DNA of 64,000 nucleotides from Escherichia coli (GCF_041886205.1 NZ_CP169029.1), one strand, 5' to 3'; positions 19,776-56,833 are shown, counted from the first letter of the stretch. Numbers and translations: made by a program. Notes: a model not told the origin generated them from the letters alone.

Positions 19776-19803
19776 AGAGCCAGCGCCTGCTGGCTCTTTT
19801 TTA
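19776..19803 (+). terminator. Rho-independent terminator after asnS
   Basis: 9-bp stem agagccagc/gctggctct followed by T-run. Confidence 0.6.
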
Positions 19804-20152
19804 TCCTTTCTGTCAAGTTATCTGTTTGTTAAGTCAAGCAATCTATTTGCAACCCCGCCATAACGATCATCCTGTTACGGAATATTACATTGCAACATTT
19901 ACGCACAAAAAATAACCTGGATTCTTATTGCGGATTAGTTTTTTCTTAGCTGATAGCACAATTTTCATACTATTTTTTGGCATTCTGGATGTCTGAACGA
20001 GGATTTAGTGCCAGGTCGATAAAGTTTCCATCAGAAACAAAATTTCCGTTTAGTTAATTTAAATATAAGGAAATCATATAAATAGATAAAAATTGCTGTA
20101 AATATCATCACGCTTCTATGGAAATATGACGGTGTTCACAAAGTTCCTTAAA

Positions 20153-20363
20153 TTTTACTTTTGGTTACATATTTTTTCTTTTTGAAACCAAATCTTTATC
20201 TTTGTAGCACTTTCACGGTAGCGAAACGTTAGTTTGAATGGAAAGATGCCTGCAGACACATAAAGACACCAAACTCTCATCAATAGTTCCGTAAATTTTT
20301 ATTGACAGAACTTATTGACGGCAGTGGCAGGTGTCATAAAAAAAACCATGAGGGTAATAAATA
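20153..20363 (+). promoter_or_regulatory. ompF promoter with tandem OmpR-binding region and long 5' UTR (MicF target)
   Basis: AT-rich block tttacttttggttacatattttttctttttgaaaccaaatctttatctttgtagcactttcac (20153 onward) resembles the tandem OmpR sites; about 110-nt leader with GAGGG ribosome-binding site before ATG 20364. Confidence 0.55.
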
Positions 20364-50411: not shown

Positions 50412-50540
50412 TTTTATGCTCTTATCGTGGTTTATCCGCTAAAAGCATAGTCAACAGTTCATCGGCATGGCGGCGGTGATAGCGCCTTTGAGATAAAACC
50501 CGTATTATTGCGCGCTTTCCGTACGACTAAAGTGATTTTC

Positions 50541-52301
50541 ATGACGCAAACATTTATCCCCGGCAAAGATGCCGCTCTGGAAGATTCCATCGCTCGCTTC
50601 CAGCAAAAACTTTCAGACCTCGGCTTTCAGATTGAAGAGGCCTCCTGGCTGAATCCTGTGCCTAACGTCTGGTCTGTACATATTCGCGACAAAGAGTGCG
50701 CACTGTGTTTTACCAACGGTAAAGGCGCAACCAAAAAAGCGGCGCTGGCTTCTGCACTTGGTGAATATTTCGAGCGTCTCTCAACCAACTACTTTTTTGC
50801 TGATTTCTGGCTGGGCGAAACCATCGCCAACGGTCCGTTCGTGCATTATCCCAACGAAAAATGGTTCCCACTGACCGAAAATGACGATGTGCCAGAAGGA
50901 CTACTCGATGACCGTCTGCGCGCGTTTTATGATCCGGAGAATGAACTGACCGGCAGCATGCTGATTGACCTACAATCCGGTAACGAAGATCGTGGTATTT
51001 GCGGCCTGCCGTTTACGCGTCAGTCCGACAATCAGACCGTTTATATTCCGATGAATATCATTGGTAACCTGTACGTCTCCAACGGTATGTCCGCAGGTAA
51101 TACCCGCAACGAAGCACGCGTTCAGGGATTGTCTGAAGTTTTCGAACGCTACGTGAAAAACCGCATTATTGCTGAAAGCATCAGCCTGCCAGAGATCCCG
51201 GCAGACGTGCTGGCGCGTTACCCAGCGGTGGTTGAAGCGATCGAAACACTGGAAGCAGAAGGTTTCCCGATCTTCGCATATGATGGTTCCCTTGGCGGCC
51301 AGTATCCGGTGATTTGCGTGGTACTGTTTAATCCTGCAAACGGCACCTGCTTTGCCTCTTTCGGTGCGCATCCTGATTTTGGCGTAGCACTGGAACGTAC
51401 CGTGACCGAGCTGCTGCAAGGTCGTGGCCTGAAAGATTTGGATGTGTTTACTCCGCCAACCTTCGATGATGAAGAAGTCGCTGAACATACCAACCTCGAA
51501 ACGCACTTTATCGATTCCAGCGGTTTAATCTCCTGGGACCTGTTCAAGCAGGATGCCGATTATCCGTTTGTGGACTGGAATTTCTCCGGCACCACGGAAG
51601 AAGAGTTTGCTACGCTGATGGCTATCTTCAACAAAGAAGATAAAGAAGTTTATATTGCCGATTACGATCATCTGGGCGTTTATGCTTGCCGTATTATCGT
51701 GCCTGGCATGTCCGATATTTATCCGGCTGAAGATCTGTGGCTCGCGAATAACAGTATGGGCAGCCATTTACGTGAAACGGTTCTTTCGCTACCAGGCAGC
51801 GAGTGGGAAAAAGAAGATTACCTGAACCTCATCGAGCAACTGGATGAAGAAGGTTTTGATGACTTTACCCGCGTGCGTGAGCTGTTGGGTCTGGCGACCG
51901 GGTCGGATAACGGTTGGTACACCCTGCGTATCGGTGAATTAAAAGCCATGCTGGCGCTGGCTGGTGGCGATCTGGAACAGGCTCTGGTCTGGACCGAATG
52001 GACGATGGAGTTTAACTCATCGGTATTCAGCCCGGAACGCGCCAACTATTATCGCTGCCTGCAAACGTTGTTATTACTGGCGCAGGAAGAAGATCGCCAG
52101 CCGCTGCAATATCTGAATGCGTTTGTTCGCATGTACGGCGCAGATGCCGTGGAAGCCGCCAGTGCGGCAATGAGCGGCGAAGCGGCGTTTTATGGCTTGC
52201 AACCAGTAGATAGCGATCTGCACGCGTTTGCTGCACATCAGTCGTTGTTGAAGGCCTACGAAAAGCTGCAGCGCGCCAAAGCAGCATTCTGGGCAAAATA
52301 A
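50541..52301 (+). CDS. ycaO: YcaO-domain protein (ATP-dependent; linked to RimO-dependent beta-methylthiolation of ribosomal protein S12)
   Basis: ORF 50508..52301; start at ATG 50541 (MTQTFIPGKDAALEDSIARFQQKL), 586 aa. Confidence 0.9.
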   Translation: MTQTFIPGKDAALEDSIARFQQKLSDLGFQIEEASWLNPVPNVWSVHIRDKECALCFTNGKGATKKAALASALGEYFERLSTNYFFADFWLGETIANGPFVHYPNEKWFPLTENDDVPEGLLDDRLRAFYDPENELTGSMLIDLQSGNEDRGICGLPFTRQSDNQTVYIPMNIIGNLYVSNGMSAGNTRNEARVQGLSEVFERYVKNRIIAESISLPEIPADVLARYPAVVEAIETLEAEGFPIFAYDGSLGGQYPVICVVLFNPANGTCFASFGAHPDFGVALERTVTELLQGRGLKDLDVFTPPTFDDEEVAEHTNLETHFIDSSGLISWDLFKQDADYPFVDWNFSGTTEEEFATLMAIFNKEDKEVYIADYDHLGVYACRIIVPGMSDIYPAEDLWLANNSMGSHLRETVLSLPGSEWEKEDYLNLIEQLDEEGFDDFTRVRELLGLATGSDNGWYTLRIGELKAMLALAGGDLEQALVWTEWTMEFNSSVFSPERANYYRCLQTLLLLAQEEDRQPLQYLNAFVRMYGADAVEAASAAMSGEAAFYGLQPVDSDLHAFAAHQSLLKAYEKLQRAKAAFWAK

Positions 52302-52632
52302 AATCAAATAGCCTACGCAATGTAGGCTTAATGATTAGTCTGAGTTATATTACGGGGCGTTTTTTTAATGCCCCGCTTTACATATATTTGCATTAATAAA
52401 ATAATTGTAATTATAAAGTTAAATATCGGTAATTTATATTTAATAAATACGATCTATATTGTTACTTTATTCGCCTGATGCTCCCTTTTAATTAACTGTT
52501 TTAGCGGAGGATGCGGAAAAAATTCAACTCATTTGTTAATTTTTAAAATTTATTTTTATTTGGATAATCAAATATTTACTCCGTAATTGCATAAAAACCA
52601 TGCGAGTTACGGGCCTATAAGCCAGGCGAGAT

Positions 52633-52646
52633 ATGATCTATATCAA
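52633..52646. promoter_or_regulatory. FNR-binding site of an anaerobic focA-pflB promoter
   Basis: atGATctatATCAA matches TTGAT-N4-ATCAA with one mismatch; TAGTAT -10-like hexamer about 23-28 bp downstream (52669-52674), consistent with a class II FNR promoter. Confidence 0.5.
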
Positions 52647-52706
52647 TTTCTCATCTATAATGCTTTGTTAGTATCTCGTCGCCGACTTAATAAAGAGAGA
52701 GTTAGT

Positions 52707-53564
52707 GTGAAAGCTGACAACCCTTTTGATCTTTTACTTCCTGCTGCAATGGCCAAAGTGGCCGAAGAGGCGGGTGTCTATAAAGCAACGAAACATCCGC
52801 TTAAGACTTTCTATCTGGCGATTACCGCCGGTGTTTTCATCTCAATCGCATTCGTCTTCTATATCACAGCAACCACTGGCACAGGCACAATGCCCTTCGG
52901 CATGGCAAAACTGGTTGGCGGCATTTGCTTCTCTCTGGGGCTGATTCTTTGTGTTGTCTGCGGAGCCGATCTCTTTACTTCCACAGTGTTGATTGTTGTT
53001 GCTAAGGCGAGTGGGCGCATCACCTGGGGTCAGTTGGCTAAAAACTGGCTAAATGTCTATTTTGGCAACCTGGTCGGCGCACTGCTGTTTGTACTTTTAA
53101 TGTGGCTTTCCGGCGAGTATATGACCGCAAATGGTCAATGGGGACTAAACGTCCTACAAACCGCCGACCACAAAGTGCACCATACTTTTATTGAGGCCGT
53201 CTGTCTTGGTATCCTGGCAAACCTGATGGTATGTCTGGCAGTATGGATGAGTTATTCTGGCCGCAGCCTGATGGACAAAGCGTTCATTATGGTGCTGCCG
53301 GTCGCGATGTTTGTTGCCAGCGGTTTTGAGCACAGTATCGCAAACATGTTTATGATCCCGATGGGTATTGTAATCCGCGACTTCGCATCTCCGGAATTCT
53401 GGACCGCTGTCGGTTCTGCACCGGAAAATTTTTCTCACCTGACCGTGATGAACTTCATCACTGATAACCTGATCCCGGTTACGATCGGTAATATTATCGG
53501 CGGTGGTTTGTTGGTTGGGTTGACATACTGGGTCATTTACCTGCGTGAAAACGATCACCATTAA
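52707..53564 (+). CDS. focA: Formate channel FocA
   Basis: ORF 52587..53564; translation assigned to GTG 52707 (VKADNPFDLLLPAAMAKVAEEAG...) preceded by GAGAGAG; 285 aa; FNT-family polytopic protein. Confidence 0.9.
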   Translation: MKADNPFDLLLPAAMAKVAEEAGVYKATKHPLKTFYLAITAGVFISIAFVFYITATTGTGTMPFGMAKLVGGICFSLGLILCVVCGADLFTSTVLIVVAKASGRITWGQLAKNWLNVYFGNLVGALLFVLLMWLSGEYMTANGQWGLNVLQTADHKVHHTFIEAVCLGILANLMVCLAVWMSYSGRSLMDKAFIMVLPVAMFVASGFEHSIANMFMIPMGIVIRDFASPEFWTAVGSAPENFSHLTVMNFITDNLIPVTIGNIIGGGLLVGLTYWVIYLRENDHH

Positions 53565-53618
53565 TGGTTGTCGAAGTACGCAGTAAATAAAAAATCCACT
53601 TAAGAAGGTAGGTGTTAC

Positions 53619-55901
<2,283 letters not shown>

Positions 55902-55970: not shown

Positions 55971-56092
55971 GCACGAGAGCCTTTTTTGTCAGCTATCTAT
56001 ACTTTAAGGTGACTGCCAAAACAGACTCGACGTAGCCTTCGAGCTGCGCACCAACACGGCCTCAGATGGGCCACATCTGGAGAAACACCGCA

Positions 56093-56833
56093 ATGTCAGT
56101 TATTGGTCGCATTCACTCCTTTGAATCCTGTGGAACCGTAGACGGCCCGGGTATTCGCTTTATCACCTTTTTCCAGGGCTGCCTGATGCGCTGCCTGTAT
56201 TGTCATAACCGCGACACCTGGGACACGCATGGCGGTAAAGAAGTTACCGTTGAAGATTTGATGAAGGAAGTGGTGACCTATCGCCACTTTATGAACGCTT
56301 CCGGCGGCGGCGTTACCGCATCCGGCGGTGAAGCAATCCTGCAAGCTGAGTTTGTTCGTGACTGGTTCCGCGCCTGCAAAAAAGAAGGTATTCATACCTG
56401 TCTGGACACCAACGGTTTTGTTCGTCGTTACGATCCGGTGATTGATGAACTGCTGGAAGTAACCGACCTGGTAATGCTCGATCTCAAACAGATGAACGAC
56501 GAGATCCACCAAAATCTGGTTGGAGTTTCCAATCACCGCACGCTGGAGTTCGCCAAATATCTGGCGAACAAAAATGTGAAGGTGTGGATCCGCTACGTTG
56601 TTGTCCCAGGCTGGTCTGACGATGACGATTCAGCGCATCGCCTCGGTGAATTTACCCGTGATATGGGCAACGTTGAGAAAATCGAACTCCTCCCCTACCA
56701 CGAGCTGGGCAAACACAAATGGGTGGCAATGGGTGAAGAGTACAAACTCGACGGTGTTAAACCACCTAAGAAAGAGACCATGGAACGCGTGAAAGGCATT
56801 CTTGAGCAGTACGGTCATAAGGTAATGTTCTAA
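56093..56833 (+). CDS. pflA: Pyruvate formate-lyase activating enzyme (radical SAM)
   Basis: ORF 56066..56833; start at ATG 56093 ([23 protein letters not shown]), 246 aa; CxxxCxxC motif ([10 protein letters not shown]). Confidence 0.95.

Follow-up and report, generated by a model that had tools for sequence, protein, structure and literature searches.

The spacer between ycaO and focA analysed here, from the chromosome of Escherichia coli (GCF_041886205.1, NZ_CP169029.1), is almost certainly the known oxygen-responsive focA-pflB regulatory region of this species together with its leader, and the channel gene downstream of it begins at a GTG codon. We refer to the whole stretch of DNA that was analysed, 64,000 nucleotides of one strand written 5' to 3', as "the window"; positions are counted from its first letter unless a K-12 accession is named. 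The region itself is the K-12 focA-pflB control region in another strain, and as such is already known and opens no new question. It shares with its K-12 counterpart the FNR 14-mer, the ArcA array, the IHF site, the -10 hexamers and the GTG start (Sawers and co-workers; EcoCyc; Myers 2013; Park 2013). Every testable defining feature is present except a canonical Shine-Dalgarno, whose absence at focA is already known. A tool-free, sequence-only reading of the window had recovered this textbook regulatory region along with its correct non-ATG start. It had overlooked the distal promoter, the ArcA repeats, the conserved IHF site and the published GGAGG that binds 30S subunits upstream.

Identity and Composition of the Region

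The annotated neighbours give the gene order ycaO-focA-pflB-pflA, with all four genes on the + strand. Of 5426 complete E. coli genomes, 5425 are matched by a 551-nt query that spans the focA control region, and the match in strain 6EVA is 100% identical. The location between ycaO and focA, the presence of pflB and pflA downstream and the near-identity to E. coli genomes identify the region as the orthologue of the E. coli focA-pflB control region. Its alignment to K-12 MG1655 is gapless, with 4 substitutions in 431 nt (Table 1), and since there are no indels, published K-12 coordinates convert directly; GTG 52707 equals 953689 in U00096.2 and 954466 in U00096.3. Two of the substitutions, at 52417 and 52436, fall within the published four-repeat ArcA site, the window allele at 52417 being the commoner one in other genera.

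The stop codon of ycaO occupies 52299-52301, and the spacer extends from 52302 to 52706. Its description as an AT-rich stretch of 405 bp is accurate on both counts: the length is exact, and the G+C content is 0.30, compared with 0.503 for the window on average, which places the spacer second for AT-richness among the 405-bp stretches of the window. Other strongly AT-rich islands, comparable to the focA spacer, are found at 9269-9673 (G+C 0.29) and 19799-20203 (G+C 0.31).

For conservation, the FocA protein was used to retrieve 76 enterobacterial loci (approximately 23 genera, FocA identity 89-100%), all of them from Enterobacteriaceae and thus close relatives; start codons were compared in 79 enterobacterial loci. 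An Rfam scan of 52200-53700 returned only a chance-level match to a eukaryotic snoRNA (E = 0.49).

Table 1. Features of the ycaO-focA spacer and the focA start region, in window coordinates.
Feature	Position	Strand	Details and basis
Hairpin 1 (AGCCTAC-GCAAT-GTAGGCT)	52310..52328	+	Just 3' of the ycaO stop; -10.6 kcal/mol, z = -4.1
Distal focA promoter	52323..52359	+	-35-like TAGGCT 52323-28; 17-bp spacer; -10 TATATT 52346-51; start 52359; 348-nt 5' UTR
Hairpin 2, ycaO intrinsic terminator (CGGGGCGTT...AATGCCCCG)	52353..52376	+	-15.7 kcal/mol, z = -3.8
ArcA array	52394..52447	+	Four direct repeats about 11 bp apart; Park 2013 prediction and ChIP
Differences from K-12 MG1655 (window/K-12)	52417 A/G; 52436 A/G; 52455 T/G; 52586 A/T
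Classic ArcA box AGTTAATTAA	52488..52497	-	Exact WGTTAATTAW match
30S-binding site within the long leader	52494..52513	+	Upstream Shine-Dalgarno GGAGG 52506-52510 (-201); 5' end -213
IHF site AATCAAATATTTA	52566..52578	+	Perfect WATCAA-N4-TTR; conserved A/T tract before it
FNR site ATGATCTATATCAA	52633..52646	+	Centre 52639.5; ChIP and conservation
Proximal promoter A	52656..52670	+	-10 TATAAT 52656-61; mapped start 52670; 37-nt leader; FNR site at -30.5, over the -35 position
Proximal FNR-dependent promoter ('P6')	52669..52681	+	-10 TAGTAT 52669-74; start ~52680/1; 26-27-nt leader; FNR site at -40.5/-41.5
Translation initiation region	52695..52710	+	GAGAGAG 52695-52701; out-of-frame GTG 52705 followed at once by TGA; focA GTG 52707
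focA CDS, 285 aa, GTG start	52707..53564	+	RefSeq CDS; PDB 3KCU, 9G49

The FNR Site

The near-consensus FNR site that had been picked out upstream of focA stands. The 14-mer has a single mismatch to TTGAT-N4-ATCAA, as expected of the FNR box of a class II promoter, and exactly this 14-mer is bound in vivo: the published site TTGATATAGATCAT at 953750 reads as its reverse complement and occupies the same coordinates, the FNR ChIP-seq summit (953741/6) is 15 bp away, and focA-pflB is classed as directly FNR-activated (Myers 2013). The motif match alone is unremarkable. Seven one-mismatch sites occur in the 64-kb window, sites with at most two mismatches number 43 against 35.7 +/- 5.8 in shuffled sequence, and such an FNR site is present in 3% of simulated 405-bp stretches of spacer composition; the reality of the site rests on its conservation and on the published ChIP data. 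In 74 of the 76 loci it is situated at -74 to -76 from the GTG, and in these 74 both pentamers are invariant, including the mismatched A of ATGAT, while the four spacer bases vary. Invariant half-sites around a variable spacer are the footprint of a protein-binding site. Elsewhere in the window, TTGAT-N4-ATCAA is matched with one mismatch at 6957, 7535, 8084, 10104, 17193 (ATGATGAATATCAA) and 60349 (TTGATGATGTTCAA), a number such as chance predicts.

The additional FNR half-sites of the sequence-only reading did not survive scrutiny, as the spacer holds three exact half-site pentamers against 1.3 expected (P = 0.14), no more than chance provides, and one of them falls within the IHF site. Two FNR motifs have been described within the ChIP peak (Myers 2013). 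A search of the spacer for a second FNR site yielded no convincing one, the best candidates having at least three mismatches: those at 52383, 52433, 52533 and 52555 were rejected with three mismatches each, and ACGATCTATATTGT at 52449-62 with five mismatches and a poorly conserved left half.

The Proximal Promoters

The view of the spacer as a multi-promoter region agrees with the record, which comprises focA starts at 52359, 52670 and ~52680/1, coming from separate datasets, and sigma70 ChIP summits at 52364 (954032 in U00096.2) and 52701, both of them higher anaerobically. Among the focA starts, only 52670 was detected in M9-glucose cultures (953726; upstream sequence ending ...CATCTATAATGCTTTGTTA / ...TATAATGCTTTGTTA) (Kim 2012), and only 52359 is included in the table of a recent preprint (Jagodnik et al. 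2025). When set against these mapped starts, the FNR site is placed at -40.5 from the EcoCyc start (Myers 2013, Table 1), the starts at 52670 and 52359 being also on record.

A suitably spaced -10 hexamer had been claimed for the FNR site, and this is true of one hexamer but not of the other. TAGTAT spans -12 to -7 of the ~52680/1 start, a start that is taken from the literature, and so has the geometry of class II FNR promoters; for the consensus-looking TATAAT, the spacing from the FNR site does not fit (Table 1). Both hexamers are 100% conserved in the 76-locus comparison. Without oxygen, FNR binds ATGATCTATATCAA, which for the 52681 start corresponds to the class II activation position (about -41.5), and the bound site also covers the -35 position of the TATAAT promoter, so that a switch between the two promoters is to be expected. 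From this geometry we infer that, when FNR is bound, initiation shifts from the 52670 start to that at 52681. The names historically given to the proximal focA promoters are 'P6' and 'P6A', for which Kaiser and Sawers are said to have found in 1997 that FNR favours the 52681 start over the 52670 start and represses the 52670 promoter.

Like the class II FNR promoters of dmsA, narG and yfiD, that of focA lacks a good -35; its -10 hexamer spans -12 to -7, and a TTGAT-N4-ATCAA-type site is centred 40.5-41.5 bp before the start. It differs from them in an extra consensus -10, the TATAAT 13 bp upstream, which has its own start, and in its left half-site, which is ATGAT in all 74 site-bearing loci, the imperfection itself being conserved.

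More 5' ends are situated inside focA, at 53263 and 53361, and are of the kind historically called pfl promoters 1-5; they may represent either true starts or products of processing. They are recorded as 953131 and 953033 (U00096.2), 354 and 256 nt upstream of pflB, respectively (Kim 2012).

ArcA and IHF Sites

FNR, ArcA and IHF are published as activators of the operon and NarL as its repressor, and a scan for FNR, ArcA and IHF motifs, which the sequence-only reading had put forward as a check, finds the FNR site, an ArcA array and box and an IHF site. An ArcA site was predicted at 953949-954002 of K-12, with a ChIP peak centred at 953965, that is, at 52431 (Park 2013), and the conversion of these coordinates gives the array of Table 1. 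TGTAA, GTTAA and GGTAA are conserved in it at 11-bp spacing, in keeping with the direct-repeat organization of ArcA sites. A second ArcA element, a classic box on the opposite strand, is matched by a published ArcA motif at 953895-909, corresponding to 52487-52501 (Federowicz 2014); its sequence, as TTAATTAAC, is present in 66 of the 76 loci, and an exact box is found in 3.9% of composition-matched simulations. The conserved block at 52484-98 had been considered as a -10 element, and is better explained as this ArcA box.

The IHF consensus match occurs in 6% of composition-matched simulations, and the consensus is found at -141/-142 in 55 of 76 loci; WATCAA and TTR are conserved and the N4 between them is variable, a pattern that agrees with the consensus. 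Dependence of pfl expression on IHF has been published. Situated between the distal and the proximal promoters, the ArcA repeats, the ArcA box and the IHF bend site would supply the reported ArcA and IHF input.

The composition of the spacer has to be weighed at this point, as AT-rich DNA coated by nucleoid proteins or horizontally acquired could display such motifs as mere by-products. Each motif alone is found in 3-6% of composition-matched simulations, the FNR half-sites are not enriched, and a consensus promoter scan returned 2 sites versus 3.8 in shuffles, missing all three real promoters, all of which is what such a by-product would look like. Nonetheless, the spacer belongs to 5425 of 5426 E. 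coli genomes, conservation over approximately 23 genera footprints the motifs, the contact positions being invariant and the spacers variable, and occupancy by FNR, ArcA and sigma70 has been published at these very positions. For the main sites the by-product reading is already refuted, and for the spacer as a whole we give it next to no probability.

The Distal Promoter and the Conserved Blocks

The distal start corresponds to position 954814 of U00096.3 in EcoCyc, the coordinate used by Jagodnik et al. (2025, preprint). The sequence (C/T)TATATTAC-GGGGC is conserved in most genera. We infer that this promoter is probably the historical 'P7'. Other positions for the distal start were dropped: ~52412 and 52467, both from the consensus promoter scan, in favour of 52359, which is backed by the sigma70 summit and the conserved TATATT; and ~52497, derived from a presumed second FNR site, in favour of the EcoCyc start at 52359.

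Two predicted hairpins downstream of ycaO are interleaved with this promoter. The 3' arm of hairpin 1 overlaps the -35-like TAGGCT, and GTAGGC is conserved across genera, its 5' arm not always. Hairpin 2 is considered the terminator of ycaO because in other genera compensatory changes preserve its stem and a T-run comes after it. The 5' arm of hairpin 2 contains a G+C-rich CGGGGC, and the distal start lies directly 3' of it. The layout TATATTAC-GGGGC-stem-T-run is kept in most of the enterobacterial genera examined, and is replaced in Klebsiella and Raoultella.

A further observation concerns the other end of the spacer, where a block of 80 nt (~52647-52727) shows little or no variation among 75 species, including all synonymous sites of focA codons 1-7; third positions vary freely from codon 8 on. 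A structured initiation region was considered and rejected, as both short leaders are less stable than shuffles (z = +1.1 and +1.4), and only a weak hairpin at 52701-18, with the GUG in its loop, is predicted.

From these sequence patterns a two-part proposal can be drawn, which we hold only tentatively and consider rather doubtful as a whole. In its first part, the distal promoter, nested as it is in the ycaO terminator, would be so placed that read-through from ycaO is terminated, and transcripts of focA, being devoid of most of the 5' arm, could escape. In its second part, the invariance of ~52647-52727 would hint at a constraint acting on the RNA, such as a site of pairing or processing, in addition to the known signals of promoter and start.

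The Start Codon of focA

The GTG at 52707-52709 is in frame with an open reading frame of 325 aa that begins at TTG 52587, 120 nt upstream, and is followed by KADNPF... The claim that focA starts at this GTG is supported by several lines of evidence. It is the start of the RefSeq CDS; the PDB chains 3KCU, 3KCV, 9G49 and 9I3K, each 285 aa long, correspond to residues 41-325 of the longer frame, their first residue being that encoded by GTG 52707, and the N-terminus is thus that of the characterised FocA. GTG is found in 79 of 79 loci, preceded by the invariant AGAGAGAGTTAGT and with AGAGAGAGTTAGTGTG invariant in all 79, and toeprinting and mutagenesis have been published for it. Coding constraint begins at the GTG and not before. 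Codons 8-22 vary at their third positions; for codons 8-14, the minor-allele fraction is 0.07, 0.02 and 0.36 at the first, second and third position, and synonymous codon differences outnumber nonsynonymous ones by 184 to 39. The 42 "codons" upstream of the GTG have no such periodicity; codons 1-7 are invariant and therefore uninformative.

The 325-aa frame had been called an artefact, and this judgement was right: since annotation, structures, conservation and the position of the proximal starts downstream of the upstream start codons all support the GTG, the frame is 40 codons too long. A FocA of up to 325 aa from TTG 52587, or of 299 aa from TTG 52665, could in principle be made from the long distal transcript, whose 348-nt leader contains both TTGs, in a frame that stays open for 40 codons in this strain. 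Against it, in 20 of 79 loci the frame is closed by a stop 4-12 codons before the GTG, without an intervening start codon, the upstream "codons" are devoid of periodicity, a Shine-Dalgarno is missing at both TTGs (+0.6 and +1.8 kcal/mol), transcripts from the proximal starts (52670 and ~52681), which are both downstream of the TTGs, lack them altogether, and the stretch is taken up by the FNR site and the -10 hexamers. In our estimation a longer FocA has hardly any chance of being real. With the start at the GTG, the 40 codons before it represent untranslated leader and promoter DNA.

A shorter protein of 271 aa, starting at the ATG of Met15 (52749) and leaving the GTG and codons 1-14 as leader, is also very improbable. 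ATG is a better start codon than GTG, and the orthologue of Klebsiella pneumoniae MGH78578 was in an old annotation 42 nt shorter (816 vs 858 nt; table in Kim 2012). However, codons 8-14 bear the coding signature described above, with differences mostly at third positions, tblastn matches reach residue 1 in all loci, no anti-Shine-Dalgarno pairing precedes 52749 (+2.2 kcal/mol), and toeprinting and mutagenesis point to the GUG region. The N-terminal domain of residues K2-P31 is moreover needed for function, its deletion having been described to impair the channel. All these data favour the GTG at 52707 over Met15.

Open reading frame calls for neighbouring genes also begin upstream of their RefSeq starts: the pflA call (255 aa, ATG 56066; 56066-56833) begins 27 nt before the RefSeq start at 56093 (MSVIGRIH...), and the ycaO call (597 aa, TTG 50508; 50508-52301) begins 33 nt before that at 50541 (MTQTFIPGK...).

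Translation Initiation and the Upstream 30S Site

The GAGAGAG that had been proposed as the Shine-Dalgarno of focA does precede the GTG and is needed, as mutation of the start Shine-Dalgarno abolishes expression and a toeprint dependent on tRNAi is seen at the focA start region (Jagodnik et al. 2025, preprint), but it is weak. Anti-Shine-Dalgarno pairing amounts to -4.9 kcal/mol for the GTG versus -9.2 kcal/mol for pflB, the other in-frame candidates giving +0.6, +1.8 and +2.2 kcal/mol; among the candidate focA starts, only GTG 52707 has complementarity to the 16S 3' end. A canonical Shine-Dalgarno, defined as at least four consecutive bases complementary to the 16S 3' end located 5-10 nt before the start, is absent, and in a survey of 2022, too, the gtGTG start of focA is entered without a Shine-Dalgarno of at least 4 nt.

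The long 5' UTR contains in addition the 'focA-213 uRBS', to which 30S subunits bind in the absence of initiator tRNA, both in vivo and in vitro; mutation of its upstream Shine-Dalgarno lowers the expression of focA-lacZ by approximately 10-fold (Jagodnik et al. 2025, preprint). An ATG follows the GGAGG directly, with zero spacing, and is thus unusable as a start. GGAGG or AGGAG is found near -201 to -210 in 34 of the 76 loci. The closest known counterparts are upstream ribosome-binding or standby 30S sites, among them that of tisB; focA, with its GGAGG some 200 nt upstream of the start, is itself the model case of Jagodnik et al. (2025, preprint).

Biological Significance

Translation of FocA proceeds from GTG 52707 by means of its poor GAG-repeat Shine-Dalgarno, with the long transcript being helped by the upstream GGAGG that binds 30S subunits. 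With so weak an initiation region, FocA should be made in smaller amounts than PflB, which has a strong Shine-Dalgarno of its own. Insertions of IS elements in the regulatory region upstream of focA were selected repeatedly as E. coli colonised the mouse gut, and these insertions raised anaerobic focA transcription (PMC5094792). The region sets the level of the formate channel and of pyruvate formate-lyase made by E. coli when oxygen runs out.
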